A stretch of DNA of 64,000 bases from an uncultured Methanosarcinaceae archaeon. GTDB lineage: Archaea; Halobacteriota; Methanosarcinia; Methanosarcinales; Methanosarcinaceae. Under the pieces are notes generated by a model. The model was not told the origin of the DNA, searched no databases, and saw only the letters and a program-made list of their open reading frames with translations. Both the position numbers and the translations under genes were made by a program. Location of the stretch: the NCBI GenBank assembly GCA_963833425.1, contig CAWHXP010000005.1:32001-96000 (forward strand). Reading direction: 5' to 3'. Positions 10,120 to 49,343 of this stretch are shown here, piece by piece. The stretch's first letter is position 1. The number at the start of each line of letters is the position of its first letter.

Positions 10120-11041
10120 TTCAAATTTCTCTCAACACTATACTCTTTTTTAGGTTTGCTCAGTGACTCATGGAGCTTATGGAACATATAGTGCATATGG
10201 AGCTCATGGTACATTTGGAACTAATTAGCCTAAACCATAGTCATAAATAAAATTCTGACTTAAAATGAGATAAGTAATACAATTTTTAAATGTTATATCA
10301 TAAAATATGAAAAAATTAAAGAAAAATATTAAAAATGAAGTTGTCATAAAGTTATATGTAGATCCGAAAAAGATTCAGGAACATCAACAGCTGCAGCGAC
10401 ATCGGCAAATTCTTCAGGTAACTATTTGAATCAATGTCAATAATATTCTCTTTAGTCATCTATAGGATTTCGATAAACAAAGCATGAAAATTATGTGAGA
10501 TGAACTCATTTGAAATTTGAAGCTTTTGTAGTAACTATTAAATTAGTTTAAGCGATATGTAGATGCTAATTCAAATTCGACTTTTTACATATATTTATTC
10601 ATTTATTTTTATTTATTTCTTGGCTCAATTTCAAAATCCAGTGATGAAATATATTCTTAAATTTCATCGCAGATCTATTTTTTCGTCTTGGTGTGGCAAG
10701 AGAATCTGCTTTAATGCATGAAAATGCAAGTGTTCATTGCACTGAAAAACTTCTCATGAAAATATCAACCATGTAACTTGGATGGCATTTTTGAGAGTTT
10801 GATGCATAAAAGTTCAGTAATTTGTTAAACTTTCTTCTCAACTTTTTATCCTATCCATTTACATCAACTACCCATTATATCTTAACCTTTGTCTTTTCAG
10901 TACATGCAGAGTTTTTTTGTGGCAAAATAGATGTATTTTCTCATTTTTCTCCCGAAATTATAGGACATTTTCACCTGATTGTGTAGAAAACGAACAGTTT
11001 TTATTAAAATATATGTTGTGATGGGAAGCGAAAAAGTTACT

Positions 11042-11508
11042 ATAGAGATTTTCGATAACCTCCATGCTCTTGAGCATGGTTTGCTTTAAATTTGTCAATA
11101 TTTATGTATATTCATGAAAACTCTTACTGATTTTGCTCTTAAATAAGAGTATAAACGTCTTGAATCTGTTGGAGATAAGCTTGCTGAAATTGCTTCCTTA
11201 ATTGATTGGAAAGCGTTTCGTATTATTCTTGAGTCTATGTATATCAACAAAACCGTTTCAAGAGGGAGACCTGAAACTGGTGTCATTGTGATGTTCAAAA
11301 TGCTTGTTTTACAACAATGGCATGGGCTCTCTGATTTTGAACTTGAGAAACATTGTATAGATCGAATTTCTTTTAGGAAATTCCTTGGATTTCCTGAATA
11401 CATATCTGGCAGTACTATTGTATGGCTATTTAGGGAGAGAATTATCGAGCATTTCAAAGAAAATATAGGGAAAGTTGCAAAGCCAACTTGGTGCTCTGGG
11501 TTTACAGA
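11042..11508 (+). mobile_element. Truncated second copy of the IS5 element, inverted relative to 6250-7332
   Basis: Near-identical to the reverse complement of about 6866-7332, including the terminal repeat and the same lesions. Confidence 0.9.
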
Positions 11509-11860
11509 TTTTCGATCATAATCTTTACTGGGTCAAGTGATGAAAAAGTTGGGAGTGATGCTGTAAAGAAAGGTGCTCAGGACTATTTAGTCAAAGGACA
11601 AATAGATAGTAGATTATTGAAACGTTCTATCCAATATTCTATTGAGACAAAAAAAAGTAAGAAGTACTAGCAAAATCAGATCGCTCTTAAAACGGAAATT
11701 CATTACAGGATTAAGAACAATTTACAAGTAATATTTCCACTTATCGACTTTCAAGCTGATAAATTCAAAGGCCGAAAGGGTATAACGGATTCAGAAGTCA
11801 TTGATGCTTTCAAGGAAAGTCAGCATAGAGTAATATCTATGCCCTTATCCATGAAGAATG
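11509..11860 (+). pseudogene. Response-regulator / HisKA_2 kinase fragment
   Basis: IIFTGSSDE...GAQDYLVKG followed by EIHYRIKNNLQVI and AFKESQHRVISM. Confidence 0.75.
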
Positions 11861-17988: not shown

Positions 17989-18070
17989 AAACCTCCTAAC
18001 TTAGTTATATCAGAAGAAAGTGATTTATATCGTTGGATTAAGAAATATAAGGCTCTTTGGTGAGCTCATT

Positions 18071-25354: not shown

Positions 25355-25696
25355 TTAGGAGTGCATTTTTAAGGTGGGGTATCCTTCATAACAGTTATTG
25401 CATAACACAGTCACAGTAGGACTTTTACCCTTTTGTCGGATCGTTTTTATCATTCCACATTTTTCTAACTCGTTCAATGCTGTCGGAAAAGCCCAATCAG
25501 GGATAGGTAAAAGGGAATTTATACCTTTCAAGGTGACTACTAAATTTGTAGATTTTTTAATACCTTTTAAGTGCCAAATGTACATAGCCACCCTATAAGT
25601 ATGCCCAACTGAATTTGAAGGTAGCTTCACAATCCATTCTAAAGGCAATTGGGGTATGAAGTATCCTTTTATTTTATCTCTAGAATTTACTAACAT
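25355..25696 (-). CDS. Winged-helix protein, second copy of 35767-36135
   Basis: Nearly identical protein and DNA at an offset of 10439 bp. Confidence 0.8.
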   Translation of the reverse strand: MLVNSRDKIKGYFIPQLPLEWIVKLPSNSVGHTYRVAMYIWHLKGIKKSTNLVVTLKGINSLLPIPDWAFPTALNELEKCGMIKTIRQKGKSPTVTVLCNNCYEGYPTLKMHS

Positions 25697-25797
25697 GATT
25701 TTACCCCATCTAATATTATTTCTAAATGATAAGAGTAAATAAATAAGAAATATAAAGAAATATAAGTAGTAAAAACATTATCCGAAGGCTTTAGAAT

Positions 25798-25880
25798 TTA
25801 GCTGTGTAGCTAATTAATTTTAGCTGTAGAGCGAAATATATTTTGCTGTGCAGCTAATTAATATTGCTCTGTAGCTAAAT
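25798..25880. repeat. Iteron-like 21-22-bp repeats (copy 1)
   Basis: ttagctgtgtagctaattaatt / ttagctgtagagcgaaatatat / tttgctgtgcagctaattaat / attgctctgtagctaaat. Confidence 0.8.
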
Positions 25881-25921
25881 TCAAAGTGTAGACAAAACAG
25901 ATTATTGGAACTATTCTGCTT

Positions 25922-26012
25922 TCAGCTTCCTTCTTCTTTAATTTCTCCTAAAATCTCCATAATCAAATGCCACTTTTCTGCACCCTTCTCATCTATATAC
26001 CTATCAGGATAA
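25922..26012 (-). pseudogene. C-terminal fragment of a second family A DNA polymerase allele
   Basis: YPDRYIDEKGAEKWHLIMEILGEIKEEGS* versus YPERYIDEKGAETWNLIMRILKEVKQE* in 36388-38157. Confidence 0.85.
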
Positions 26013-26099
26013 AGATCGTATTAAAAATACCTTTGATAATTACATGAACAAGTTCAAACCTTATTTATCAAAAACCATTTGAAGCATCTAGAGCAAAAA

Positions 26100-26116: not shown

Positions 26117-27543
26117 TGGTGATGATAGCTACCTTAAGACGCTGAATATATCAATAGTGGATTTTTATTCTATTAAAATTTGATTGAGTTTAGAAAGTCA
26201 AGATTAACGAATTAATGACTCATTAGATTCTCGATTCACAGCAAACTTCGTTAGAATTTGTTGTCTTATTTCATTTATTTCTGCCATAAAGTCTTACAGA
26301 CTGAAGCCAGATATACTCAGGACTGTCTAATACCTTCAGGCAAAATATATTGCAAATCCAGGTTTATGAAACCGATCTCTGAACTCACAAATGAAATGTA
26401 CCTGGATTATGTAGGCTCATGATAATTAATAAAATGACATTTTTCCGCTTCAGGAAAGCTCTGGCTCAAATATGAACGAGTATAGGGCGATTCGAGGCAT
26501 TTTCTTGAGAAGTTAATTAAAACTATTAACTAGATGGAAAAAAACCCCATGATAGGGCTTAAAATAAGCCAGTTTTTGTCAATCCGTTAGCAAAACATGG
26601 GACAAAGTCAGCAATTTAGTCCAAACTAATCAAAAAGTAAATGAAATCTCATGTTGATTTAGAGAATCTGGAGAAGCCTGTTAGTCAACCATCACCTATT
26701 TGCTCTCGTAAACCCTAAGTAAGTCCAAGATATAGCTAATAATAATTTTTATTACTTTATTAATATAATAGGATATTGAACGCATTTAGTTTAAATTGTA
26801 TTAGATATACTTCTTTATCTGAAATAAAGATGATCCATTTATATAAAAACTAAACTATAACTCCAGATTAAAAAGTGGTTATTACAGATTTTTCATCCCT
26901 GTGACTACTAATCAGGTCCAAAATTAACATTTTATGCAACTATATTTCAAAAATTAAGATCAAACATAATCAAGGACCGTTATTTTCGGTTCGGTCAATG
27001 GGATGCGGTGACAAAAAACAAATTAGTTCATTACTTCCAGTTTTGGATAATAAGCCTAATAACAAAAATAAGTGGAGCGGAAGGATCAAAAACTTTATTT
27101 GCTCAATGTTGTGACAATACTTCTCATTGAATTTAGCTATTATCATAGACATCCCAATACCTTGCAGTAGACTTCGTACCTTTAAATCATAAATTTTAAT
27201 AAATGGTAGTAAAGTCTTCCTTATAAAAAATAAATATAATTTATAAAAATCAGATAAAATAAATATTGAATTTGTTCTATTGCCTGAAAATAAGGCAATC
27301 ACATAGTCAATAAAATATATTTTAAAGTTGTAAAATAAATTTTTGACTTTCTAAAATTTAGTATCTATTCAGATAAATTTATGTATTTACTTGATTATGT
27401 ACTCAAAATTCCAAAATGGAAATCTTTATTTTATTAGCTAGGGATATCTCATTTATCTTTTATCTCAAAATTTTGATCTTAGAGCTAAAATGGTGAACTG
27501 TTGTGATAAAACCCAACTTTTGTACCAGAAAGCCGGAGAAGTT

Positions 27544-27900
27544 TATTTATTCGAATTTTTTAATTCTTCAAGATTTCTCTCACAAAAATCAATTCGTCTA
27601 AGATCTTCAATTTTTCTATCCATTTTTATTGCCTGTTCATAATACTCAATTGCTTTTATTGTCTCTCCCAAATCTCTATACGCGTTTCCCAGATTACCAA
27701 GGTGAATTCCTTCTGCGTCCCTATTTCCAATTTCTTTAGCAATTTTGAGTGCTTGTTCATAATACCCAATTTCTTTTTTCGTCTCTCTCAGAGCACTGTA
27801 TGCATTCCCTAGATTTCAAAGTTGATTTCCTTCATTAAGTCTATCACCTATTTATCTTGCAATTTTTAGTGACTGTTCAAGATAATTTATTGCTTTCCTC
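27544..27900 (-). pseudogene. Orphan TPR 3'-end cassette 1
   Basis: EGIHLGNLGNAYRDLGETIKAIEYYEQA...IEDLRRIDFCERNLEELKNSNK*; homologous to 34700-35050; contains frameshifts. Confidence 0.85.
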
Positions 27901-28734
27901 CCTACTTATGCTGCTCGGAGTGTTTCTCATCTTTATGTTCTTCACCGGATTTTTTGCTGTCGTTTTGTTGCTCATCTGAGTGTTTCTTCTTAGGAGCCGT
28001 GTAAATACATCCAATTCCCAGAACAACGCGTCCAATCGCCAGTAATATTAAGATTATATAGTTTGGAAACTTTGTCTTCATATTATGCACCTATTTTTAT
28101 ATTTTATAATGCATTATTAATTTATAGATAATTGACTTATTGACTTATTATCTATAATGATTATAGCAAAATGCAAATATTATATAAATACTGCCTATAT
28201 ATACTATATATATTTATATATGAATAAAGTGTTTAGCAAAGGAAAAAATATAAATCCAATAACTCCAAAGATAATTTTACGCATGTAAATAATAAAATAA
28301 GATCTTTTTAATATAAGACTTATGAAGGCTCAACTGCAAAATCTCCTTTAAGTATTTATCGCGTAAATAATGAATAAAAAAGTTGGGAATGATTTTTTTC
28401 TTATTTGTAAGTGGAAAAAATCTGTCTCAGGATGAACTTTAAGAAAAAAATGTGCCAACCTATAGCTAAAAGCAGAATACAAGTTGATTGTCTCTTGATG
28501 ACGTCTGATGTCCTCACGGTTCTAATTTTGTCTTTTGATGCAATTGTAACCAGTGGTGAACAAAAACCCATTAATAATCAAAGTTTAGCTTCGGTAGTAA
28601 AAAGATGGGGGATGGAAGTAATGATCTTACTTAAGACTAACCTTTTCCTTTTTGTTCAGTCTAAGTTGTAATATGATCGGTTTTGTTGCAAAAATAATAT
28701 CTCTGCAGTTTACTCATTAATTTTTACCTTTATG

Positions 28735-29069
28735 TACTATTTTTCTCGGTTATGAGACTAATTAATTTTCAAATTGTGATAAACATATTGATTTTGTAAC
28801 AAAGCCAAATTTTTTGCACCAAAAATCAGCAAGTTTATTTTTTCTAAATTTTTAATTTCTCAAGATTTCTCTCGCAAAAATCAATTAGTCGGGAATCTTC
28901 AATTTCTTTAGCAATTTTGAGTGCCAGTTTATAATATCCAATTGCTTTCTTTGTCCTTCCAAGATCATTGTATATTATTCCCAGATTTCCAAGGCATTTC
29001 CCTTCTCCTTTCTTACCCCCAATTTCTTTAGCAATTTTGAGTGACTGTTCATAATACTCAATTGCTTTT
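28735..29069 (-). pseudogene. Orphan TPR 3'-end cassette 2 plus 3' flank
   Basis: KAIEYYEQSLKIAKEIGGKKGEGKCLGNLGIIYNDLG...IEDSRLIDFCERNLEKLKI*; homology to 34820-35150 includes about 100 bp of non-coding DNA. Confidence 0.85.
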
Positions 29070-29104
29070 ATAAGATAGCATCATTATTTTGTAGGAGATA
29101 AACT

Positions 29105-30827: not shown

Positions 30828-33800
30828 ATGGCAGACACCAAGTACAAGTATGATGTATTTCTGAGCTATTCAAGATCTGATGTGAATTCAGTTGAAAAAG
30901 TTGCGAGCTATCTCAGTGATGCAGGACTGAACGTCTGGTTTGATGAATGGTCACTGGTTCCAGGTCAGCAATGGGAGGCATCTTTAGAGGAAGCTTTTGA
31001 TAGTTCGCTTACAATCGCTGTTTTTGTAGGTCCTTCATCGTTAAGTAATCAGCAACAACTGGAGTTGAAAGAAGTCCTTAATAAGCAGATGAACGGTGCA
31101 GTTCATAGGGTCATACCTATCCTACTTCCTGGATCCAGTATAGATTTTATCCCTTTACCCCTTCGCAAAATATGCGCTTTAGACCTTCGTAAAGGTCTTG
31201 AGACAAAACGCGAGCTAAATGAACTTGTTAAAATGATTACCGAATATAAAACCGTAACCTATGGCACTGGACTAACAACAGGTCGCGATGTTTCCATAGG
31301 TGATGTTACCGGCCAGCTAGCTATTGGGAAATATATCAATCAAATTACTATAAAAGAGCCTTCTGGAAAGGCGTTAGTTGAATTAATAGCTTATCTGGAA
31401 CAAGAGAGAAATAAAGAAGAAAATCTTAAAATTTTAAACAGCTATAATCCTTCTGTCCTTCCTTATTTTGACCCTAGACTAAAAGAATTTGTTACCACAA
31501 ACAGAGTGGAAGAATTAAGCCAAGCTCTCGTATATCTTCAGGATCACAGGCTTTTACTTTTTACTGGATTAGGTGGAGTTGGAAAGACTACTCTTGCAAG
31601 AGCCATTATTGATATAAGACCAGCTAATGTACCTATTCCTTTCTGGTTTGATTTCAGTCAAAATCAGAGTGCCAAACTAGGGGATATTCTCGAAAAACTC
31701 GCAGCATATATGAATTCTCGAGATTTAGTAGGATTCAAAGAGGAAAAACGAGAGCCAGAAAAAAAGGATATTGATAAACTCATAGACAAATTAAATGTAG
31801 GAAACCCAGTATGGCTTATTTTCGACAACTTGGAAACTATAATGGATGACATTTATTTCCAAGATGAATATATAGATCTATTTTTTACTTGTTTGTTTAC
31901 CAACACTTACCAGATAAAGATCATTATAACGAGTAGAACTGTTCCAATGTTAAAAAATGAAGAATGCTTAATTAACGTAATAGAAGGAGATAAACAGAAT
32001 GTTGGGGGTTTGAAGACTAATTTTGCAGTTGAATATCTCGCCAAAAACGGGCTTGCTAATATAGAACTTTATAAGCTTGAAGAACTTGCCAAAGGAGTTG
32101 ATGGACATCCTCTGGCTCTAAAACTTCTTGTAGAATTAGTAAAGAAATTTGGAGAAGAAGATACCATAGAGGATCTAAATATATATCAGGAACAAAAACA
32201 GGACACAATATTAAAAGCGAGAAAGCTCTTTGACAAACTAGTAGGGAAAGAAAAAGCTCTAGTTGAGCGTATTTCTGTCTATCGTGAGCCTGTGAAGATA
32301 GAAGGGCTTAAAGAGATGTTTATGGAGAAGACATCTTTAACTGATATTCAAAGGCTTAGGAATAAGTCACTATTAGAAACTGATCTTAGTGGTAAGTATT
32401 GGCTTCATCCTCTGGTACAAGAGTTCTCTTACTACGACCTTGAAAACAAAAAAGAAGTACATAAGCTTGCAATGAATTATTACCTTTCTCTATCTATTCC
32501 TGAAAAGCCTGTAAAAAAAGAAGATATCCAGTCTCTTATTGAAGCACACTACCATGCCTACACGGCAAAAGAATACGATCAGGCTTTCAACATCATATTT
32601 GACAATAAATTGAATGAATATCTTGATCTCTGGGGCAATTATACAGTACTTATTGATCTCTACTCAAAATTATTGCCAGATAATCATTTTAAAACCGAAA
32701 TTCTTCTGAAAGATAAAGGAAGTCATGGTATAGTCCTTGGGAATCTAGGGCTAGCATACCGTGATCTTGGAGAGATAAGGAAAGCAATTGAGTATTATGA
32801 ACAAGCACTCAAAATTGCTAAAGAAATTGTGGATAGGCAAGATGAAGGAATTTGGCTTGGAAATCTGGGGAGTGCATACAGTGATCTAGGAGAGACGAAA
32901 AAAGCAATTGAGTATCTCGAACAAGCACTAGAAATTGCTAAAGAAGGAGACAGGAAAAATGAAGGAATTTGGCTTGGAAATCTAGGGAATGTATACCGTA
33001 ATTTGGGAGAGACGAGAAAAGCAATTGAATATCATGAACAGGCACTAGAAATTGCTAAAGAAACTGGAGACAGGAAAAATGAAGGAGGTCAACTTGGAAA
33101 TTTGGGGAACGCTTACTATAATTTGGGAGAGACTAAAAAAGCAATTGAGTATTTAGAACAGGCACTAAAAATTGCTCAAGAAATAGGAGACAGGCAAGGA
33201 GAAGGAGCAGACCTTGGAAATATGGGGAACGCTTACTATAATTTGGGAAAAACGAAAAAAGCAATTGAGTATTACGAACAGGCACTAAAAATTGCTCAAG
33301 AAATTGGGTACAGGCTAGGAGAAGGAATTTGGCTTGGAAGTCTAGGGAACGCATACAGTGTTCTAGGAGAACAGAAGAAGGCAATTGAGTATTCTAAACA
33401 GGCACTAAAAATTGTTCAAGAAATTGGGTACAGGCAAGTAGAAGGAACTTGCATTGGAAATCTTGGGAATGCATACAAGGATCTTGGAGAACCGAGAAAC
33501 GCAATTAAATATTATGAAAAAGCACTCAAAATTGCTCAAGAAATTGGGGATAGGCAAGGAGAAGGAACAGACCTGGGAAATCTGGGGTTAGTATACAGTG
33601 ATCTAGGTGAGACTAAAAAAGCAATTGGATATTACGAGCAGGCATTGCTAATTTCAAGAAAAATAGGTGATAGACGCGGAGAAGGAACTTGGCTTGGGAA
33701 TCTTGGAAACGTTTACAGACAACTGGATAAGATTACAATAGCAATTGAATATTACAAGCAGGCACTAGAAATTGCTCAAAAAATTGATGATAGACGAGGA

Positions 33801-34892
33801 GAAGGTGCAGCTCTTGGAAATCTGGGGTTAGTATATAGTGATCTAGGTGAGATTAAAAAAGCAATTGAATGTTATGAGCAGACTTTGCTAATTTCAATAG
33901 AAGTAGATGATAGACGCGGAGAAGGAATCGCTCTTGGAAATCTGGGATTAGTATATAGTTATCTAGGTGAGATTAAAAAAGGAATTGAACATTATGAGCA
34001 GGCATTAAAAATTTCGAAGGAAGTGGGGAATAGACACGCTGAAGGTGCGATTCTTGGAAATTTGGGGAATGCATATAGCCAAGTTGGTAAGATTACAACA
34101 GCACTTGAATATTACGAGCAGGCTTTGCTAATTTCAAGAGAAATAGGTGATAGACGCGGAGAAGGAAATCGTATTGGAAATTTGGGGTTAGTATACAGTG
34201 ATCTGGGTAAGGTTACAACAGCAATTGAATATTACGAGCAGGCTTTGCTAATTTCAAGAGAAATAGGTGATAGACGCGGAGAAGGGACTTGGCTTGGAAA
34301 TCTAGGGCTAGCATACTCTAATTTGGGAGAACCGAAAAAAACAATTGAATATTTTGAACAGGCATTCAAAATTGCTCAAGAAATCGGGGACAGGCAGGTA
34401 GAAGGAACTTGCATTGGAAATCTTGGGAATGCATACAGTGATCTGGGAGAGACAAAAAAAGCAATTGAGTATTATGAACAGTCACTCAAAATTGCTCAAG
34501 AAATAGGGGACAGGCAAGGAGAAGGAATTTGGCTTGGAAATCTAGGGAGAGCATACTATAATTTGGGAGAGACGAAAAAAACAATTGAATATTTTGAACA
34601 GGCATTCAAAATTGCTCAAGAAATAGGGGACAGACAAGTAGAAGGAACTTGCATTGGAAATCTTGGGAATGCATACAGTGATCTGGGAGAGACAAAAAAA
34701 GCAATTGAGTATTATGAACAGTCACTCAAAATTGCTCAAGAAATTGGGGATAGGCGAAATGAAGAAGTTTGGCTTGAAAATCTGGGGAAAGCATACAAGG
34801 ATCTTGGAGAGACGAAGAAAGCAATTGAATATCATGAACAGTCACTCAAAATTGCTAAAGAAATTGGAGGTAGGCGAAATGAAGGAACTTGA
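30828..34892 (+). CDS. TIR + STAND (NB-ARC-like) NTPase + TPR repeats (NLR-like)
   Basis: YDVFLSYS and RVIPILL; GLGGVGKT, LIFDNLE, GHPLAL, LHPLV; 18 TPR units of about 40 aa; ends at a TGA where neighbouring repeats have TGG or TGC. Confidence 0.93.
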   Translation: MADTKYKYDVFLSYSRSDVNSVEKVASYLSDAGLNVWFDEWSLVPGQQWEASLEEAFDSSLTIAVFVGPSSLSNQQQLELKEVLNKQMNGAVHRVIPILLPGSSIDFIPLPLRKICALDLRKGLETKRELNELVKMITEYKTVTYGTGLTTGRDVSIGDVTGQLAIGKYINQITIKEPSGKALVELIAYLEQERNKEENLKILNSYNPSVLPYFDPRLKEFVTTNRVEELSQALVYLQDHRLLLFTGLGGVGKTTLARAIIDIRPANVPIPFWFDFSQNQSAKLGDILEKLAAYMNSRDLVGFKEEKREPEKKDIDKLIDKLNVGNPVWLIFDNLETIMDDIYFQDEYIDLFFTCLFTNTYQIKIIITSRTVPMLKNEECLINVIEGDKQNVGGLKTNFAVEYLAKNGLANIELYKLEELAKGVDGHPLALKLLVELVKKFGEEDTIEDLNIYQEQKQDTILKARKLFDKLVGKEKALVERISVYREPVKIEGLKEMFMEKTSLTDIQRLRNKSLLETDLSGKYWLHPLVQEFSYYDLENKKEVHKLAMNYYLSLSIPEKPVKKEDIQSLIEAHYHAYTAKEYDQAFNIIFDNKLNEYLDLWGNYTVLIDLYSKLLPDNHFKTEILLKDKGSHGIVLGNLGLAYRDLGEIRKAIEYYEQALKIAKEIVDRQDEGIWLGNLGSAYSDLGETKKAIEYLEQALEIAKEGDRKNEGIWLGNLGNVYRNLGETRKAIEYHEQALEIAKETGDRKNEGGQLGNLGNAYYNLGETKKAIEYLEQALKIAQEIGDRQGEGADLGNMGNAYYNLGKTKKAIEYYEQALKIAQEIGYRLGEGIWLGSLGNAYSVLGEQKKAIEYSKQALKIVQEIGYRQVEGTCIGNLGNAYKDLGEPRNAIKYYEKALKIAQEIGDRQGEGTDLGNLGLVYSDLGETKKAIGYYEQALLISRKIGDRRGEGTWLGNLGNVYRQLDKITIAIEYYKQALEIAQKIDDRRGEGAALGNLGLVYSDLGEIKKAIECYEQTLLISIEVDDRRGEGIALGNLGLVYSYLGEIKKGIEHYEQALKISKEVGNRHAEGAILGNLGNAYSQVGKITTALEYYEQALLISREIGDRRGEGNRIGNLGLVYSDLGKVTTAIEYYEQALLISREIGDRRGEGTWLGNLGLAYSNLGEPKKTIEYFEQAFKIAQEIGDRQVEGTCIGNLGNAYSDLGETKKAIEYYEQSLKIAQEIGDRQGEGIWLGNLGRAYYNLGETKKTIEYFEQAFKIAQEIGDRQVEGTCIGNLGNAYSDLGETKKAIEYYEQSLKIAQEIGDRRNEEVWLENLGKAYKDLGETKKAIEYHEQSLKIAKEIGGRRNEGT

Positions 34893-35164
34893 CTTGGAAA
34901 TCTGGGGCTAGCATATAAGAATCTGGGAGAACGAAGAAAACAATTGGGTATTATAAACAGGCACTAAAAATTGCTCAAGAAATTGAAGATCCCAGAATAA
35001 TTGATTTTTGTGAGAGAAATCTTGAGAAATTAAAAATTCGAAAAATAAACTTCTCTGGCTTATGTGCAAAAAATCAGTCTCTGTTACAAAATCGGTGTAG
35101 ACCATCACAATTAAGAAAGTTAATTAATCTCATAACTGCGAAAAATATACAAAACGAGACCCTT

Positions 35165-35766: not shown

Positions 35767-36135
35767 TCATTTCCTATTCATTATTACTACTTCTCCATGA
35801 TCGAAATTTAAAGTGGGATATCCTTCATAACAATTATCACATAACACAGTCACAGTTGGACTTTTACCGCGCTGTCGTATAGTTTTTATCATTCCACATT
35901 TTTCTAACTCATCCAATGCTCTTGGAAAAGCCCAATCAGGGATAGGTAAATGTATATTTATATCTTTCAAGGTGACTACTAAATTTGTAGATTTTTTAAT
36001 ACCTTTTAAGTGCCAAATGTACATAGCCACCCTATAAGTATGCCCAACTGAATTTGAAGGTAGCTTCACAATCCATTCTAAAGGCAATTGGGGTATGAAG
36101 TATCCTTTTATTTTATCTCTAGAATTTACTAACAT
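35767..36135 (-). CDS. Winged-helix DNA-binding protein (candidate origin-binding protein)
   Basis: RALDELEKCGMI helix followed by a beta-wing; adjacent to the iteron-like array. Confidence 0.75.
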   Translation of the reverse strand: MLVNSRDKIKGYFIPQLPLEWIVKLPSNSVGHTYRVAMYIWHLKGIKKSTNLVVTLKDINIHLPIPDWAFPRALDELEKCGMIKTIRQRGKSPTVTVLCDNCYEGYPTLNFDHGEVVIMNRK

Positions 36136-36236
36136 GATTTTACCCCATTTAATATTATTTCTAAATGTTAAGAGTAAATAAATAAGAAATATAAAGATAT
36201 ATAAGTAGTAAAATCACTATCAAAAGGCTTTAGAAT

Positions 36237-36343
36237 TTAGCTGTGTAGCTAATTAATTTTAGCTGGAGAGCGAAATACATTTTGCTGTGCAGCTAATTAA
36301 TATTGCTCTATAGCTAGATTGGAATTTGGCTCTACAACTAAAT
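36237..36343. repeat. Iteron-like 21-24-bp repeats (copy 2), candidate origin
   Basis: Four to five units of the tt(a/t/g)gct-N4-agctaa type beside an AT-rich tract at 36160-36215. Confidence 0.8.
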
Positions 36344-36387
36344 AGAAAAGTCTGTCCAGGGTTTTTGAGTCTTATTTACGATGTTTT

Positions 36388-38157
36388 TTACTCTTGTTTT
36401 ACTTCTTTGAGTATCCGCATAATAAGATTCCAAGTTTCTGCACCTTTCTCATCTATATACCTTTCAGGATAACGAACAATACCGGCATCTGTTTTCAATC
36501 TGTTACCAGCACCTAGAACAATTTCAGATGCATCACACATCAGCTTTCTCGCTATCTCTATCTCTTTGTCTGCCGCCTTTTCATCGCACTCAATCATCAC
36601 TGCATCGTGAACTGGAGCAACAATTTTAATTTTATTTTCCGAGAGAAGGATGCATGCCACTCTAAGAATTTCAGCTCCAGTAGCTTGAATTGGGAAATTT
36701 CGGACGGTCAACATTTCCTTGTTGCTGGAGCCTGAAACAATCATTTTCCATTTATAGCAGGTTTCAATCCTTTTCATCAAACAGGCTTGAGTCCAGGTCA
36801 TATCTACCCAACGCCAGTAAATTTTAAAAATTCTTTTATGATGACTAAGCAGTTCCTTTGCATAAGGTGTAGGCTTACCAATTTTAAATCCAAGTGATTC
36901 TGCACCCAAGCCATACTGGACACCAAGTACACAAGATTTAAAGAGTTGTCTCGCACTGCCATGCGTTTCTTTTGTAGCGTCTGCTGGAACTGCACCTGCT
37001 AATTTTGCAAAAGCCAGATACGGATCCCCACTTTTATATGCCTCAATCATATTAGGGTCCTTAGAGAGAATTGCTGCAATAAAAAACTCTTGTTGTGAAT
37101 AATCAATATATGCAAGCACTTTTTCCTCAGTCGGTTTTATTAGACTTCTCAGACTAGCAGGAAGTCCAAACATAAACCGAACTCTTAATTCTCCTCTATT
37201 CTTTTTCTCCTCGTCATCCTTTGGGGCATTTCTACCTGTCTTAGTCCAGTAGGGAGAGATTAAAGTTCGACTTCTGCCATCTGAACCAGCCACTATAGAC
37301 TTAAAGTTTAGCCCACCAATAAGAGTTTTTAATTCCTTCAAAGGCCCTATTTCAGGATGGATTTCTGCCATTTCCTTGAATGTTTCCTTATCGGTTTTTG
37401 GCAGACCAGTGTCAGTTCTCGGCCACGCCCAATTGTTGACTTGAATAAATCTCTCAAAATTATTTATTTTAAAACTGGTTCCTTCGTAAATTCCAAATTT
37501 GTCAATATTTTTTATCAGTTTAAATTTTATTTTTTCCCAGTTTTCTTGCAACTCTTGAAGTAGATCGGTATCTATTGGTATACCAGTATATTCGATTTCA
37601 GCCACAGATTTCATATACTCCCCCCGATAGAGAGAAGTGGGTATGTCGAAATCAGGGACCATAATCATTCGTTTGAATAACTCGGCTGTTTCAAGTACGT
37701 CAGATTCGCAATAACTCATAATATATTCTTGATCTTCTTCAGAGTAAGGAGCTCCAGCTAAAATACGATCTCTGGCAGCATCTTTCTCCACTTTGCTAAT
37801 AGTCTCTATGCCAAAAGCTTTACAGGCATCCAGCAGGTTTGCACCTCTTCGTTCATAAGAATGATTAGAAAAGCACCTGTACTCTACGAATGAATCAATT
37901 ACATTGAATGGTAAAGGCCAGCTTAAGACCAGGTGGCACCCCCACTCTGCTGAACTCATATGAGCAACAAATAAATCATTTTCACCTATTGAGTAGGGCG
38001 GCTGATGATTGCTTTCTTCGAAAAGCCACAGTCTTTTAGTTTCTCCAGAAATTATTTCATGGGAAACAACACAAACAGGTATTGGACGTTCGCTAGGCTT
38101 TGCGATAAATTCAAAATCAATCACATAAATATGATTAAAAAATGATAGGGGGAGCAT
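36388..38157 (-). CDS. Family A DNA polymerase with 3'-5' exonuclease domain and no 5'-3' nuclease
   Basis: ExoI IDFEF, ExoIII YCESD, motif A DYSQQE, motif B RQLFKSCVLGVQYG, motif C VHDA. Confidence 0.92.
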   Translation of the reverse strand: MLPLSFFNHIYVIDFEFIAKPSERPIPVCVVSHEIISGETKRLWLFEESNHQPPYSIGENDLFVAHMSSAEWGCHLVLSWPLPFNVIDSFVEYRCFSNHSYERRGANLLDACKAFGIETISKVEKDAARDRILAGAPYSEEDQEYIMSYCESDVLETAELFKRMIMVPDFDIPTSLYRGEYMKSVAEIEYTGIPIDTDLLQELQENWEKIKFKLIKNIDKFGIYEGTSFKINNFERFIQVNNWAWPRTDTGLPKTDKETFKEMAEIHPEIGPLKELKTLIGGLNFKSIVAGSDGRSRTLISPYWTKTGRNAPKDDEEKKNRGELRVRFMFGLPASLRSLIKPTEEKVLAYIDYSQQEFFIAAILSKDPNMIEAYKSGDPYLAFAKLAGAVPADATKETHGSARQLFKSCVLGVQYGLGAESLGFKIGKPTPYAKELLSHHKRIFKIYWRWVDMTWTQACLMKRIETCYKWKMIVSGSSNKEMLTVRNFPIQATGAEILRVACILLSENKIKIVAPVHDAVMIECDEKAADKEIEIARKLMCDASEIVLGAGNRLKTDAGIVRYPERYIDEKGAETWNLIMRILKEVKQE

Positions 38158-38726
38158 TAAAGCTCACCCCTGAGTTTCTTTAAAACCGGATGGTTATGGT
38201 CATCAATGAACTTGTCCTTGAAAGCTAATTCGATAGCTTTCACCATATTCTCTGGTTCCTCAGGCCATTCCGGGTCTGGAAGTTTACTCATTGATAAGAT
38301 CATGTCGTAAGCTCCAATTGAGTCATTCGTTTGAAGCTTTAGCCATTGAGTTTCAGCTGCTGTGTAAGCTAACCTTCTGGTTCGATTATATTCATGATCC
38401 TTACCATCTGCGTCAGGTTTGGGAATTTCTGAGAGAAAGATTTCACCTGACCCGTAAGTAATGCCGGCGTAAATTCTGACGAGTCTTAACTTTTTTGTTT
38501 CTATTACCTCTGGGTACAGAGCCGGATCGAGAAGAAATTTTCCTTCTCCATCACCTTTTCCACCTAAATCTAAGAGATAAGTGTCAAATTTCCATTCAGA
38601 CCCAGGCCTGATCCTAAAGAATTCCACACCAGGTTTAGGTTTCTTGATTGGGATGGAAGTTACTACACGTTTAACAACGATGGATATAGTTTCAGTAACT
38701 TGGAGAGCCTCAAAGTTAAAAGGCAT
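38157..38726 (-). CDS. PolA-coupled protein, putative ssDNA-binding protein
   Basis: GGAGG RBS; stop overlaps the pol start (TAATG); beta-rich and aromatic. The SSB function is inference. Confidence 0.6.
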   Translation of the reverse strand: MPFNFEALQVTETISIVVKRVVTSIPIKKPKPGVEFFRIRPGSEWKFDTYLLDLGGKGDGEGKFLLDPALYPEVIETKKLRLVRIYAGITYGSGEIFLSEIPKPDADGKDHEYNRTRRLAYTAAETQWLKLQTNDSIGAYDMILSMSKLPDPEWPEEPENMVKAIELAFKDKFIDDHNHPVLKKLRGEL

Positions 38727-38880
38727 CTAAAAAACCTCCATCGTTGAAGTAAAATTTTCTAGACTATACATGCGACTGCTAGGTGCAGAGCTAAAAAAGG
38801 AAACTATATTTGATATGGAAACTATATTATTCATGATGCATCACTTTTTATTTATGGGTCGATCTGTTCTTTTGGGTCAC

Positions 38881-39264
38881 TCATGATGAAAGCAAGCATC
38901 CTACAGTGATGGTTTGCGAAATTCCCGACTGCTTGGCCGCTGCGGATATTCGCGAATCACTAACTGCAACGTTTTTAATTAAGATGGCTTTTGCTTTATC
39001 ATATACATACTCTGTTTTGAGTAGCAAAGCAATCCCCAATCTAGTTTTACTGTTTTCAGAGTTGCCTCTCCTCTTATCGATGGATGCTCTTATTGGCAGG
39101 AGACGTGCCTGAGCTATTTTTTCGATTTTGATCATTGTTTTATGTACATTGGAGAGATGATGATCAAGTTCCGCATCTATCGTTAAAGTTTTATTTTTAT
39201 AATATATTATGCATAATGATACCTTCGATATTTTGGGACTTCCCGTAATCTTGCTTTTAAGCAT
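38881..39264 (-). CDS. Hypothetical basic protein
   Basis: Start overlaps the upstream ORF stop; GAGG RBS. Confidence 0.55.
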   Translation of the reverse strand: MLKSKITGSPKISKVSLCIIYYKNKTLTIDAELDHHLSNVHKTMIKIEKIAQARLLPIRASIDKRRGNSENSKTRLGIALLLKTEYVYDKAKAILIKNVAVSDSRISAAAKQSGISQTITVGCLLSS

Positions 39265-39427
39265 TTATCCTCACTCCTACCGTTTTTAATATGTCTTTCG
39301 CAATAACCCGATTTAGAGGATTATCACTTTTCAACATGAGCAATAAAACGTCGTTATTTTGTTCACTAACAAGTCTTGCCCATTCTGAGAACGAAAAAAA
39401 TTTATCTTTTCTGGTTATAGAGTTCAT
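39257..39427 (-). CDS. Small hypothetical protein (56 aa, below the ORF track cutoff)
   Basis: MNSITRKDKFFSFSEWARLV...GVRINA*; coupled to both neighbouring ORFs. Confidence 0.6.
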   Translation of the reverse strand: MNSITRKDKFFSFSEWARLVSEQNNDVLLLMLKSDNPLNRVIAKDILKTVGVRINA

Positions 39428-39428
39428 T

Positions 39429-39638
39429 TCATTCACCTTCTTTCAGATGGTTGATGTTAATCTCGGTTCCACTGGCCCGGCAAGACTCTACAGGAACTGA
39501 GGTTATGATAATTCTTTGTTCATTGTCCATTTCGATCTTTACGTTTTCAGGATTATCTGACCTGATCCACTGTATTGGCAGTCTAATTAAATAGCTACCG
39601 GCTTGTCTAAATATTGACATTTGGCCTAAATTTATCAT
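39429..39638 (-). CDS. AbrB/MazE-like DNA-binding protein
   Basis: RQAGSYLIRLPIQW swapped-hairpin pattern; GAGG RBS. Confidence 0.65.
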   Translation of the reverse strand: MINLGQMSIFRQAGSYLIRLPIQWIRSDNPENVKIEMDNEQRIIITSVPVESCRASGTEININHLKEGE

Positions 39639-39701
39639 TTAAGTACCTCAATTTTACTTCGATACGATTAACGTCATAATTTTATATATAGATTCTATAT
39701 A

Positions 39702-40658
39702 TTGGTGAGTAGATTTATTAGAACAACATGTTGTGAGACAAAACTAAATATCCAACATGTTGGTAGATTATCAGCATTATTTAAAAGAAGTTACAGCATG
39801 TCTTATAACATGGAAGAAAAATATATCCAGGAAAAAACAATAAAAGATAGAATCTTAGGAAGTTTAGTATATTGTCCGAAAACAAACACTCAACTGTTGC
39901 AAGAGCTGAGTTATAGTAATAAACAACATGGTAATATTTCTAAACAATTACATCAGCTCAAAACAGATGGGTTCATTGTTGATGAAAAAGAAAAATCCCC
40001 AAATATAGATGACTATGCTACGTCATGGTCAATAGTCCCAAGTCTAGAAAATGTTAGATATATAGCAAAAGATCCAGATTTGGTACCAGTGCTGCAAAAG
40101 AAAGATTTTGCTCTTGAAGTTATGGCTGAGAACATTCGTGTTTCAATCATTCCAGATGTTATTGTGGATATAGATGCTATTAGTTCTCTTAAAAGTAAAA
40201 AAATAATTATAGGAGCTAAAGAGGAATTATATTTACTTCTAGAAGAGCCTAAAAGAAAATTTAAGGAAATGTTAAGATTATCTCCTGCATTCTTCAACCT
40301 TCATCTACTCCATGAAGTGTACAACATGATGTCTTGGAGTGATTTTGAAAGGGAAATTGAAGAATTACGATATATAGCTAAATTTCAACTTATCCCTTCT
40401 CTTAAGATAGTAGAGTATTATCTATATCAGAATTCATATGATTTTAAAATGTGTGTTAAAAGAGATATGTTTTTTGAAAAATTAAGTGATGAGAAAAAGA
40501 ACTACTTGATTGAAATAGAAAATTATTTGAATGAAGAAGAAAAAAATAGTGATGCCATCAGAAACTCCATCCTAAAAGTCATCACACATCCTGAATATAA
40601 TTCTGTATTGAAGGAAGAAGAAAAAAATATTAAGACCATCAAAAAAGCCATCATGTAA
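39702..40658 (+). CDS. N-terminal winged-HTH regulator (true start probably ATG 39798 or 39810)
   Basis: NISKQLHQLKTDGFI helix; divergent from the AbrB-like gene. Confidence 0.65.
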   Translation: MVSRFIRTTCCETKLNIQHVGRLSALFKRSYSMSYNMEEKYIQEKTIKDRILGSLVYCPKTNTQLLQELSYSNKQHGNISKQLHQLKTDGFIVDEKEKSPNIDDYATSWSIVPSLENVRYIAKDPDLVPVLQKKDFALEVMAENIRVSIIPDVIVDIDAISSLKSKKIIIGAKEELYLLLEEPKRKFKEMLRLSPAFFNLHLLHEVYNMMSWSDFEREIEELRYIAKFQLIPSLKIVEYYLYQNSYDFKMCVKRDMFFEKLSDEKKNYLIEIENYLNEEEKNSDAIRNSILKVITHPEYNSVLKEEEKNIKTIKKAIM

Positions 40659-40794
40659 CCGGAATATAATTCTGCATTGAAATAAATTTTCTCTAAATAT
40701 CGTTTTACCTAAATTTCTAAAAATATTAAAAGAATTTGTATTACAATTTATTGTCTAATTGTGGAATTGGTTTCGTTATAGATAGCCATTTAAA

Positions 40795-42126
40795 TTACTT
40801 TTCATTTTTAAGCATGGCCTCCTTTAATGTTGAAATTTCATCAAGCTCCCTTTTTAATTCGTTCTTCATTTCCCATATTTTTTCAAGATCTGCATATTGC
40901 ATATAGTCAGCTTTGATAGATTCGGTGGCTTTCATGTTTTCTATCTCTGCCTTGAGTTCCTGCAGTTCAGATCTTTCGTCTTTTCTTTCCTGTGTCATAA
41001 TGTCAGTAATTCGCTTGTATGCATCTTTATCTTCCTTCATTTGAATGAAAGCGGGGTGCTCCGTAGGATCGATTGATTTTTCAATAGTTAGATATGAGAT
41101 ATATTTTGTATACTCTTCCTTCAATTTCTCAGGGGAAGCTCTATAATATGCCTCGTGTGTCGCATCCAATTGGTGCCCGAGCAGGAAATCCACAAAAAAT
41201 AAACTGGCATGTTCATTGAGTAACGTGGTATTAAAGAATCTCCTCATATTATGTGATCTGTTGATATTATATTCACCACTTCCTGAACTGGTCTGAGCTT
41301 CTTCATTCAGTCTATGATAAATTGATATTATCGTTTCTTTACTTAGCTTTCTGAGCTCTTCTTTATCTTTCATTTTCTTAGCTGTCAGATATTCAAAAGG
41401 CACAGCCCTGGTGACAAACAAATATCCTTCTTTAGTAGTAACACGTTGTTTTTCGAGTTGTTGCTCTTTTATTTTGCTTTTATAATTAGGCTCCCTATTT
41501 CGCCAATTAAGATAATCCTGAATTGCTTTTGAAGCTTCGGGAGATAAGAAAGTATAGAACTCATAGTTTTTCTTTTTTCTGACAAGGTGTAGCGTTGTTA
41601 TGCCTGTCTTTGGGTCATAACCATCTACGAAATCACTAACTCTAAGATTGGAGATATCCACAGCACTCAATCCACTACTGACGCCCACTAACACAAGAGC
41701 ACGCTCAAGGGGATCACAAACATTAAGGATTTTTCTTATATCATCCTTAGTTGGTATTTTCTTTCGTTTTAATTCCGGTCTTGCATTTGTCGTGCCTTTT
41801 GGGAGTACTGGCAACTGAATATTATACAATCTATAGAATGAGCATACTCCAGTCATTCTGCTTTTAATAGTCAGTGGAGCAATATCTTTTCTCTCCAAAT
41901 GTTCTCTAAACTCTCGGAGATAACTGGTTATATTTCTCTCACGCATCAAGAGTCCAGCGCGAATCTCTTTTTCGGCTTCTTCTATAAGCTGTAATGGCGT
42001 GTTATGGGTGAACTCAGTAAATTGCTGCATTGATTGCAAATACACCCTTCTTGTTTCATAAGCCGCTTTGATTCCGGATAGCCAATCCTTAATTATTTTG
42101 TCGTTCTTTAACTCATTAACTTTCAT
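40795..42126 (-). CDS. Tyrosine recombinase / integrase
   Basis: SSGL..DISNL, HNMRRFF, LLGH and catalytic Tyr region (HEAYY); C-terminal coiled coil. Confidence 0.93.
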   Translation of the reverse strand: MKVNELKNDKIIKDWLSGIKAAYETRRVYLQSMQQFTEFTHNTPLQLIEEAEKEIRAGLLMRERNITSYLREFREHLERKDIAPLTIKSRMTGVCSFYRLYNIQLPVLPKGTTNARPELKRKKIPTKDDIRKILNVCDPLERALVLVGVSSGLSAVDISNLRVSDFVDGYDPKTGITTLHLVRKKKNYEFYTFLSPEASKAIQDYLNWRNREPNYKSKIKEQQLEKQRVTTKEGYLFVTRAVPFEYLTAKKMKDKEELRKLSKETIISIYHRLNEEAQTSSGSGEYNINRSHNMRRFFNTTLLNEHASLFFVDFLLGHQLDATHEAYYRASPEKLKEEYTKYISYLTIEKSIDPTEHPAFIQMKEDKDAYKRITDIMTQERKDERSELQELKAEIENMKATESIKADYMQYADLEKIWEMKNELKRELDEISTLKEAMLKNEK

Positions 42127-42284
42127 TTAAAGTCACATCCTAAAATAAATACCTATACAAATTTATAATTGTATTCATTGATATCCATACAGATGATTCA
42201 CAAAACATAACATTCTATGCTACCATAAACATCACAAATATTTTGACGACAAAAAAATATTTGTGAAGCAACAAAAAAAATATC

Positions 42285-42502
42285 TAGAGAGTATTTCGAT
42301 GATCTCCGATTTTTGGCTGGTTGCTTATTCAAAATTTAGTACTAACTAGTCCCTAAAAAGCAATGCAGATTAATTTCATATAAAATTCTGATCGTGTTCT
42401 TAGTCATTATAGATATTTCGAAAATCATCGATTTCAACAAATTGCTTATATATTGATTATAAGCAACCAGCCAAAAATCGGAGATTATCGAAATACTCTC
42501 TA
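42285..42502. mobile_element. MITE-derived 44-bp inverted repeat (complete MITE plus inverted half copy)
   Basis: 42285-42328 and 42459-42502 are reverse complements with one mismatch. Confidence 0.8.
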
Positions 42503-43231
42503 TAAATTTGAGCTTTTTATCATTTTCTGGCTTTTTTGTTATTTTAAATATTGTGTGTTAAAGTCAAGATAGTTTTAGGGATGGAATTGGTACTAAATTA
42601 TGAAAATTACCAAAAATAATGAAATATTACATATTTAATATTATAATATTGTTTGCCTTTATAATTAGTTATGTGGAAACAATTTTTGTTCATAAACATT
42701 TTTTCGTGTAAATAATTAGAAATAAAGTATAGTGCATATTATTTTTGCAGCTTATATCTAATAAATTGTGAGCTAGCAGATACAAATGAAAGAATTGCCC
42801 GGAAGATGTTGTTTAGGAATATTATTGTTCAGGCAATATACCTTTGGAGTTGGGATAAGGAACATAACTTTCAGGAACATAACTTTCCGGGTTTTTCTTC
42901 CAATCATTTTTCAGTTGTGCCCGAATGGGGTAATGCTGTGAACGTTAAAATGACTATGAAATTGTCCCGTCATCGGGATGTAGATTTAAGAAATAGGTAA
43001 CAACAAAAGTAACACTTTTTTACAAATTGTATCTTAATCGAATAATGGTGACGAATGTATGAATGAACTTACCAGTAGATTATTCTTCCAGAAACGAATT
43101 GGACTATTAATTGGTTCATAACGAGTATTATAATAATACAATATTAAGATAAAAATATAGTTCCAAATTTATTATCAAAAATCTAAGGTAAATGGGGGTA
43201 AAATTAAATTGTATAAGTTTGGAGGGATTAA

Positions 43232-47781: not shown

Positions 47782-49343
47782 TCTATATCTTGTATTTGGC
47801 ACTTCGCCGTTTCGTGTGGGATTGGAAACAATTTTTTAGTTGAAAAGTAACTACACAATAAATAGGCATCGAGAATGGATATAATTTCCATAAATAACTG
47901 TTTGCAAATATAACATATACTTGTTGCATTTAGGAAGTAATTTTAAATAACTAACTCGAAATAACAAAGAGCCTTGTATTTTTTAATCCCTACTCTAAAT
48001 CACTTTTGCTGACATGATTAAGTTAGGTGTTTTATGAGATGATTAGTTTCTTCTTTTGGCTAACACTATCCTACAGAGATTTCTGATAAACTTGATATAC
48101 TATTTTGCCAAAAAAATCTGCTAGACATCGTTCATGTTAAACATTTCAGATTCTAGAGTAGTATAAGTTTTATTTTTTAGATATGTTCTTTTTTGTAATT
48201 TTATGGCGAAGCCAGCTTAAGAACTAAATTGTCTATGATCTTTTGGAGAACTTTTAATAGCTGAATCATATTATTCAGAAAATTTCGATGAACCTCCAAT
48301 TTCAACAAATTGTTTACATACGCCTTATAAACAACCAGCAAAAAATTGAATTTATCTAGATCCTCATCAGTGCAATTTGTGCAATGATTTTTTTAATCTA
48401 CTTTATCTGTCTTTTCAGAAATAAATTCTTCAGATCTCATGAATTTTCAACTATAAACATAGATGCTGTATTAAATGAATCATAAATAAAAATCCAAATC
48501 ACTTTTTGATTCACATGCAAAAAAATCACATTTTTTTGATATAACCCAACTTTTAAGAGCTAAAATTCCATCATCATATATAGCGAAACTTTGCTGTTGT
48601 TTCTCAACGGAAACTAGAAACTAGTGTTAAACACTTTTATAAATGTTTGAACCACAAGACTTTTTACTATTTCGATCAATCCAAATCACTAATTCATTGG
48701 GCAGTGAAATCATCTAAAAGACTAATATTAACATCCGTGATCAAAGTTACATATGAGCCTCTGATAGCAATTAATTGATTATTTTATAAAGTTTTTTTAA
48801 AAACCAAAATTCGGACGAACTCCTGGCCGAAATAAAAATGGGTTCAATGTTTACAGGAGAGTAAGGTAAAGAATAATTCATTCATTCAAGCTTATTATTG
48901 AAGAAATTCATGTTAATTCTCAGGAGAGATCTATTCTCATTCTATCCCCAGTTTCTGGGGAAGAGAAAATCATGCAACGATTTGTTTTTTTGAACATAAG
49001 TTGCTGTTTCAATTTTTTTTAATAATAACGCTAGCTTGAGGCTACCCGAGTTTGCTAAGTTTTGTTGATGATTTATTTCCTTCATTCTCTTGTTTAAGTT
49101 TATTTATAGATCCTGAATACTGGTTCCTTTTGAAACGTTGCCTGTTATTTGGGACATGTTTGATTTTTCCATTGGCTAGCGTAACCACTCATTGTTGAAA
49201 GAGCAGAAATAAATAAATTGAGAGTAATAACAGTTAATAGAAGATAAATTTCTCATTGAAAATTCGCATTTATATCTTGTATTATATTATTGTGAAAATC
49301 ACTTTCTTTATTTATCAATGAAGATTCCAAAGATATAGATATT

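Follow-up and report, generated by a model that had tools for sequence, protein, structure and literature searches.

A small integrative element with a putative family A polymerase replication module in a Methanosarcinaceae chromosome

The window analysed here is a stretch of 64,000 nucleotides from an uncultured Methanosarcinaceae archaeon (assembly GCA_963833425.1, contig CAWHXP010000005.1, positions 32,001 to 96,000), and its part ~35808-42126 is read, with a probability of roughly 0.6, as a small (~6.3 kb) integrative mobile element that carries a putative replication module of its own in a methanogen chromosome. An integrase gene is located at one end of the element, while the opposite end is occupied by a cassette of p189, a gene for a family A DNA polymerase (PolA), an iteron array and p122, a gene for a small winged helix-turn-helix (wHTH) protein (Table 1). 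Among the eight open reading frames (ORFs) of the element, p318 is the sole one on the plus strand and is divergent from the other genes. All the ORFs that a preceding sequence-only reading had placed here do exist, and its proposal of a compact mobile and integrative element centred on a polymerase of family A is supported. Pfam assigns names to only two of the ORFs, namely DNA_pol_A (4.4e-27) and Phage_integrase (4.3e-11). PHROGs concur (phrog_17 at 7.5e-49 for PolA; 1.9e-20 for the integrase), and NCBIfam returned only sub-threshold matches to Pol I and XerA. No primase, helicase, Rep or capsid family was matched by any of the eight ORFs in the four libraries searched (Pfam, PHROGs, NCBIfam and PADLOC), as had also been noted from the letters.

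Table 1. Features of the element, and the remnant of a second copy, by position in the window (aa, amino acids).
Feature	Position	Strand	Basis
Integrase, 443-aa tyrosine recombinase, coiled-coil-like C-terminal tail	40795-42126	-	Pfam, PHROG, NCBIfam
p318, probable archaeal wHTH-type regulator (lead)	39702-40658	+	Language-model neighbours
p69, small ORF, divergent from p318	39429-39638	-	ORF; homologues in L002, L004, L005, L006
p59, small accessory ORF	39257-39436	-	ORF; homologues in L001, L003, L006
p127, variable accessory ORF	38881-39264	-	ORF; short matches in 2 loci only
p189, constant PolA partner, family without a name	38157-38726	-	74/80 loci, directly upstream of PolA
PolA, 589-aa family A DNA polymerase with 3'-5' exonuclease domain, CHEAP subfamily (by sequence)	36388-38157	-	Pfam, PHROG, alignment
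Iteron array	36238-36343	-	Pattern counts, alignment of copies
p122, putative small winged-helix DNA-binding protein, last cassette gene	35767-36135	-	Family-level profile; downstream of PolA
Conserved terminal sequence GGATATCCCACTTTAA	35808-35823	-	Alignment of seven copies
Remnant of second copy	25355-26015	-	tblastn, DNA comparison

The combination of p189, PolA and the wHTH gene is a cassette conserved in some archaeal genomes and in hundreds of bacterial ones. Relatives of PolA number at least 2987, and a genome scan with one genome per species gave 597 candidate stretches, 567 of which encode a PolA relative; 80 loci, picked by similarity to the archaeal query, were kept (handles such as L001 refer to individual loci). 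In blastp comparisons, 74 of the 80 loci have a homologue of p189 directly upstream of PolA and 48 have one of p122 directly downstream of it; by clustering, the p122 count is 64. The fourth common gene family, present in 45 of the 80 loci by clustering, is a tyrosine integrase (3.6e-30), and the clustering placed no other gene cluster in more than 8 loci. Profile searches also located a recombinase within 6 kb of PolA in 63/78 loci; among the 38 loci with 5 kb or more on either side of PolA, 33 have a recombinase that close.

The lack of a recognisable primase or helicase extends beyond the window. Forty upstream neighbours of at least 200 aa, sampled in related loci, gave 0 matches to primase or helicase families; 34 of them match nothing, and the rest are an IS66 transposase, an HNH protein, a DUF protein, a restriction subunit and two host genes. 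Homologous elements that routinely carry a primase or helicase, which had been named beforehand as a ground for refutation, were not seen in this sample, and it is supported that the absence is a trait of the whole family and not a local deletion. A match to a described virus or plasmid family, named as another such ground, did not emerge either: no close relative turned up among 50,697 phage records, where the best identity was 31.6% over 58% of the query, or among 72,556 plasmid records, where it was 28% or less. Long fused PolA forms amounted to only two, both intein-bearing and at 26-28% identity, and the blank result here is weak evidence.

PolA looks like an active enzyme from its residues. 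In an alignment of 18 homologues (A1), the catalytic columns are invariant or nearly so, including D14/E16, D88 and Y149/D153 of the exonuclease and D352/E357, R403/K407/L411/Y415 and H517/D518 of the polymerase; Exo I to III and motifs A, B and C are named here by our own mapping onto Klenow, and ExoI/III and the three polymerase motifs had been pointed out earlier in this 589-aa protein. PolA begins at Exo I and has no second Pfam domain, and thus no 5'-3' exonuclease domain. L411, invariant in A1, is the Leu at position 3 of motif B (B3), as mapped by the K-x3-L-G-x2-Y-G pattern. In the available text of Czernecki et al. 2023 (PMC10201439), cluster #15, the 'CHEAPs', is defined as a subfamily of mainly Proteobacteria and some Methanomicrobia, with all motifs intact, Leu at B3 and a length of ~580 aa, and the I. 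dechloratans CHEAP is described as fast in polymerisation and strongly active in vitro, both in primer extension and as an exonuclease. The reference sequence of that enzyme in the supplement shares long identical strings with the A1 consensus, in a by-eye comparison of ~400 visible residues, and by sequence PolA of the window is a member of the CHEAP subfamily. An Aquificae-like/PREX assignment, which was considered first because the PREX paper also names Methanolobus, was rejected for PolA, with PREX chains at ~4e-6 versus 1e-12 for Taq and with Leu instead of Phe at B3.

The constant partner p189 is tied closely to the polymerase. The stop of p189 and the start of PolA overlap as TAATG, confirming the coupling reported earlier, and the spacing between the two is -4 to +4 nt in 57/64 loci, with an overlap in 39. 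The p189 family comprises 2088 representative relatives (E<=0.001); among the best 120 matches of its profile search, none has a Pfam domain, and the source names are all 'hypothetical protein' apart from one stray enzyme label. The language-model atlas offered no lead for p189, with scores of 0.85 or less and unnamed clusters. A p189 model from AF2 with a 64-row alignment reached a predicted local distance difference test (pLDDT) of 93.6 and a predicted template-modelling score (pTM) of 0.84; the single-sequence fold (pLDDT 34.5) was useless. Several aromatic residues are retained across the family and its C-terminal tail is strongly conserved, features that would suit a single-stranded DNA-binding protein (SSB) docking on a polymerase. 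We regard p189 as a candidate single-stranded DNA (ssDNA)-binding or accessory subunit, as a lead and not as an assignment. A complex prediction of PolA (A1) with p189 (A2), made without controls, had a best score of 0.20 against a mark of 0.32 and was not used.

At the other side of PolA, p122 is a winged HTH protein at the family level, upholding at that level the label it had been given. The profile of the p122 family (56 members) matches FadR/GntR wHTH chains at 1e-4, and 18/56 members match Pfam GntR or TrmB; the window copy alone gave no match. The 252-nt spacer between PolA and p122 contains ~5 TTAGCTG(Y)A-type sites spaced ~21-25 bp, one inverted and one a near-palindrome, and after them comes an A+T-rich promoter-like stretch for p122. 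With at most one mismatch, TTAGCTGYAS has 23 matches in the window versus 11.0 +/- 2.8 in shuffled sequence, where 0/100 shuffles reach 23, and the iteron-like repeats described earlier are in this way substantiated; 8 of the 23 matches fall in the two copies of the PolA-p122 intergenic stretch. This spacer is conserved in all seven close copies, more so than the flanking genes. Moreover, divergent archaeal relatives have unrelated tandem repeats with a period of 21-23 bp at the same position (2x in L006, 3x in L007, 3x in L008 and 5x in L009). Tandem repeats of about two helical turns adjoining the gene of a putative DNA-binding initiator are a feature of iteron-type replicons, and since the repeats change with lineage and adjoin a DNA-binding gene, the arrangement has the appearance of an iteron origin or operator. 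We infer that p122 binds these iterons. The remnant of a second copy in the window, a solo unit of iteron region and wHTH gene, could still titrate or regulate the full copy.

From its genes, the element appears to be integrative and of the tyrosine-recombinase type, with the recombinase gene at one end. Small neighbours in the bacterial copies include AlpA (9.6e-11) and a Xis-type HTH_17 protein (1.7e-10), and a tRNA or tmRNA gene abuts the integrase end in 6/20 bacterial loci scanned that have the integrase after the wHTH gene. Such a position next to a tRNA or tmRNA gene was seen in the bacterial relatives and not in the window, where a tRNA scan found 0 tRNA genes and an Rfam scan gave no match. 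One Bryobacterales chromosome holds three copies that are 99.4-99.9% identical over ~5.9-6.0 kb and then diverge sharply; this ~6-kb stretch contains the integrase, small genes, p189, PolA and the wHTH gene. In the left flanks of these copies (L037, L038 and L040 in OZ252030.1, ~6330-6480), homologous ORFs abut the copies, two of the three being confirmed TPR proteins, and the junction resembles a Ser/Thr-kinase motif by eye; it seems that insertion of the Bryobacterales element is directed to a conserved part of a gene family.

Copies closer to the window were found in two Methanosarcinaceae metagenome-assembled genomes (MAGs), which have three and two copies with PolA 89-91% identical to that of the window. 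The blastn similarity to L001-L005 covers 35807/35808 to ~38730 only, extending to 39140 in L002, and the integrase side differs and is mosaic. When the window copy, the window remnant and L001-L005 are aligned, similarity stops right after GGATATCCCACTTTAA (35808), which places the wHTH-side end of the element at 35808, inside the 3' end of the p122 ORF, whose last ~40 nt run past the element end. The remnant runs from the final 27 codons of PolA through the iteron region to a 113-aa p122 gene, which is intact; by tblastn its p122 is 93.6% identical over 109 aa and its PolA 74% over 27 aa, and its DNA is 85.8% identical to 35807-36475. The terminal 16-mer was sought at both ends, and no second copy was found near the integrase. 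In the integrase itself, aligned with its relatives, H292, R295 and Y327 are invariant.

Some observations touch the integrase gene and the flanks of the elements. The last ~45 integrase residues (window 40798-40940) are 60-63% identical to the C-termini of the L001, L003 and L006 integrases, although the two integrase types are otherwise unrelated, and an exchange of modules at this position is suggested. A 51-nt inverted repeat pair (window 42278-42509), 94% complementary and 130 nt apart, lies immediately beyond the integrase gene; part of this repeat recurs at window 48278-48347, at L004 ~18068-18136 and in related MAG loci, so that it looks like a repeat of the miniature inverted-repeat transposable element type. 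As well, L002, L003 and L006 have a common 8-kb stretch of ~95% identity directly after the elements (e.g., L002 13540-21748), while their PolAs are only ~55% identical to each other, which suggests a common insertion hotspot for different element lineages.

Named PolA relatives occur in Methanosarcina, Methanolobus, Methanosalsum, Methanocalculus and Methanoperedens, as well as in many bacterial phyla at ~45% identity, and the element family is patchy across phyla and the two domains. In a FastTree phylogeny of 68 PolAs, which omits ten loci with short or split PolA ORFs together with L012 and L079, without a PolA-cluster ORF, the window and six archaeal rows form one clade with a support of 100; two bacterial rows are nearest to this clade, and all the remaining rows are bacterial. 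By this tree, the element family is mainly bacterial, with the archaeal copies nested within it as one clade, which is compatible with one entry into Methanosarcinaceae; the direction of transfer is suggested by the distribution only. Family A had earlier been described as typical of bacteria and phages; polymerases of this subfamily were already reported in Methanomicrobia (PMC10201439, in the text available).

These features are combined most readily in a minimal integrative replicon, which the element probably represents, with a wHTH/iteron origin and a PolA-p189 replicase. The integrase would excise the element as a circle, and p122 would bind the lineage-specific 21-23 bp iterons just upstream of the p122 gene, thereby marking the origin and probably regulating the p122 gene too. 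Translational coupling would result in p189 and PolA being made in a fixed ratio, p189 would serve as an ssDNA-binding or accessory subunit of PolA, and the exonuclease-proficient PolA may copy the small circle by strand displacement with no dedicated helicase. A linear replicon primed by a protein, with p189 in the role of the terminal protein, was considered but not retained, since a circular form follows from integration through a tyrosine recombinase. That one element family can live in both bacteria and Methanosarcinaceae would also be explained by a replication set that makes few demands on its host.

How synthesis would be primed is a matter of analogy. The CHEAPs are described as the subfamily nearest to staphylococcal CcPol (PMC10201439), and CcPol has been reported to prime DNA synthesis only with its small ssDNA-binding partner MP (PMC7581432; bioRxiv 10.1101/2022.12.02.518924, as far as the available texts go). 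De novo initiation by PolA-p189, in the manner of the related CcPol-MP primase, is the favoured route, although we would give it slightly less than an even chance; extension of a transcript or of a host-made primer at the iteron/promoter region might be the route instead, at odds of around one in three. The closest precedent for self-priming is the CcPol-MP pair of PolA and SSB, in place of piPolB, to which the sequence-only reading had turned. Joining all of these parts gives a tentative and, on balance, doubtful proposal: the CHEAPs would be the replicases of very widespread ~6-kb elements of bacteria and archaea without helicase or primase, where PolA and p189 start DNA de novo at a wHTH/iteron origin. 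If true, the elements would be the family A equivalent of self-synthesising elements based on PolB and would hold a second, independent form of PolA-based primase.

Several results weigh against the replicon interpretation or its priming step. Most of the unnamed neighbours of 200-420 aa in the bacterial elements match no family and could hide a primase or helicase. The only attachment (att) core candidate common to both ends is the 9-mer ATTTAAAGT, which is about what chance would give by a rough estimate, and it is absent upstream of the related integrases (L002, L004, L008). In the Int443 subfamily (window, L002, L004, L008), Ser or Ala replaces the first catalytic Arg in 4/4 members, with Ser at the aligned box I Arg position in the window, which raises the possibility that the Int443 integrase is atypical or impaired; the missing Arg is either replaced in function by a different one, or the integrase works by an atypical chemistry. 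In the close copies L003, L005 and L006, PolA is split into two ORFs, through decay or MAG sequencing errors. As for p189, its profile had 0 matches among PDB sequences at E<=1, and in the fold search with its model neither PDB nor BFVD yielded a match at E<=0.001. Of the top 50 BFVD rows, four are named single-stranded DNA-binding protein, and these are weak (E 0.004-0.07, TM 0.27-0.36), as are the PDB fold matches to PRD1 P12 and the RB69 SSB core (E 0.2-0.3); of the SSB label proposed earlier for p189, a weak fold likeness stands, and no match reaches E<=0.001. In addition, the I. dechloratans CHEAP assays used primed templates only, in the available text of PMC10201439, and the CcPol-type primases are always accompanied by a helicase and lack a large part of the exonuclease domain, in both respects unlike the element here.

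One alternative keeps the same integrative replicon and takes the priming away from PolA, so that synthesis would start from a transcript of the p122-promoter/iteron region or from a primer made by a host primase that the wHTH protein recruits, with p189 as an SSB or processivity factor. Extension of transcripts is classical for family A enzymes, such as ColE1 replication with Pol I, T7 and mitochondrial Pol gamma. This fits the A+T-rich promoter-like stretch upstream of p122, which abuts the iterons, and the full exonuclease domain, which separates PolA from the CcPol primases; the characterised CHEAP is likewise a fast, proofreading, primer-extending polymerase in the available text of PMC10201439. 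However, bacterial and archaeal primases and helicases are non-homologous, so the recruitment of host factors in both domains would need repeated re-adaptation, and the strict p189-PolA coupling suggests more than a free SSB. We consider this alternative on the whole unlikely, although it deserves to be taken seriously.

Alternatively, the cassette might be cargo, i.e., a polymerase-based anti-phage or DNA-damage-tolerance system on an integrative element in a defence island. PolA does match the PADLOC model RTasPolA (DRT system) at 2.4e-28, the element adjoins Trypsin-TIR and TIR-NB-ARC-TPR genes and a 1300-aa WD40 protein, and defence was raised as a possibility for PolA-SSB pairs by Rice (bioRxiv 10.1101/2022.12.02.518924, in the available part). 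The PADLOC score of 97 bits, however, is no better than that of the generic Pfam PolA model (95.5 bits), and the partner genes have no defence-model match in PADLOC. The cassette makes up much of the ~6-kb Bryobacterales copies, which leaves no other candidate replication function there, and lineage-dependent iterons next to the wHTH gene are more in keeping with an origin or operator than with a defence effector, all of which makes cargo improbable. That PolA is a cellular auxiliary repair or replication enzyme lying near an integrase by chance would agree with the available text of PMC10201439, where the CHEAPs are regarded as cellular, as not replacing Pol I and as having no known partners, and where the word 'integrase' occurs 0 times. 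The recombinase linkage counted above, the multiple near-identical copies in several genomes, the relatives that adjoin tRNA or tmRNA genes and carry AlpA/Xis genes, the patchy distribution over phyla and both domains and the truncated second copy within the window all stand against a chance association, which is thus very improbable.

On the replicon interpretation, the CHEAP subfamily would have to be re-read as replicases of mobile elements that have defined partners and a candidate origin, rather than as 'cellular auxiliary' enzymes. One element family is documented in both bacteria and Methanosarcinaceae, and its minimal three-gene-plus-iteron module is a candidate host-independent replicon for methanogens and bacteria. 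The element also lends itself to testing whether priming of DNA synthesis with a partner protein is within the reach of a family A polymerase that is full-length and proofreads.

The remaining ORFs of the element are less constant. The language-model neighbours of p318 are TrmB/MarR + HVO_2833_C regulators, with scores of 0.84-0.87 that stay under the 0.9 mark, and p318 has weak homologues in L002, L004 and L005; the wHTH label given to it earlier therefore survives as a lead only, pointing to a probable archaeal wHTH-type regulator. For p69, no match was obtained in Pfam (E<=0.1) or PDB (E<=5), and its former AbrB label is unsupported. No family was matched by p127 in Pfam, nor an above-threshold one by p59 in Pfam and PHROGs.

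The element is flanked by ordinary archaeal chromosome genes, including an archaeal-type dehydroquinate synthase II, SRP54 and TruD, and a repeat-rich, defence-like protein cluster is also found in its surroundings. TPR-coding repeats at window 27501-29072 and 32735-35154 stand in inverted orientation upstream of the Trypsin-TIR and TIR-NB-ARC-TPR genes, and decayed TPR units after a 1354-aa gene reach 35526, ~280 nt short of the element end; these inverted repeats and decayed units indicate that the TPR region was rearranged. The gene for the 1300-aa WD40-repeat protein (18071-21973) has ~126-nt tandem units with an identity of ~90% across 1.6 kb. A 469-nt duplicate in inverted orientation, with 97.7% identity (6865-7333 and 11041-11509), overlaps a DUF772 transposase fragment, and the two copies look like insertion sequence remnants. 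Window 1-29000 contains just 15 ORFs of at least 110 aa in 29 kb, with a local G+C of 0.27-0.42, and may be rich in decayed genes and repeats.

With regard to published work, the polymerase subfamily and its presence in methanogens are already known, and what is new is its mobile setting, the pair of constant partner genes, the iterons and the occurrence in both domains. A literature search found no description of a p189-PolA-wHTH-integrase element, within a coverage that most subscription journals lie outside; a 2026 survey (PMC12926913) mentions, in its available text, a prophage-borne exo+ 'PolA3' and not CHEAPs. Casposons, polintons and pipolins are likewise integrated elements that encode their own DNA polymerase, but theirs is of family B and is accompanied by Cas1, rve or other integrases and by terminal inverted repeats, whereas the window element has a family A enzyme and a tyrosine recombinase, and its ends showed no terminal inverted repeats. 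Iteron-controlled plasmid replicons and small integrative plasmids or islands (P4-like integrase-AlpA-primase islets) have in common with the element family the tandem ~22 bp repeats adjoining a winged-helix gene, as well as, for its bacterial relatives, the integrase and AlpA at a tRNA gene; in contrast to these, the putative initiator here has ~120 aa, and a complete DNA polymerase replaces the Rep-helicase or primase.

The CcPol-MP systems of SCCmec and other Firmicute elements also pair a family A polymerase on an integrative element with a small protein that falls into no sequence family, and a site-specific recombinase adjoins them. In the available texts, such Pol-SSB pairs accompany a helicase and serine recombinases (PMC7581432; bioRxiv 10.1101/2022.12.02.518924), with the order Pol-SSB-helicase-serine recombinase, a small OB-fold partner downstream and a Pol that is often truncated at its N-terminus, whereas the window element has a partner of 189 aa upstream, a complete exonuclease domain, no helicase found, a tyrosine recombinase, and a wHTH gene with iterons. 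The CHEAPs themselves are the same kind of enzyme, of ~580 aa, with intact exonuclease and polymerase motifs, Leu at B3 and a distribution in Proteobacteria and Methanomicrobia. The difference lies in the context: cellular and without known partners in the paper that defined them, they are found here in small integrative elements, together with two constant partner genes and iterons.

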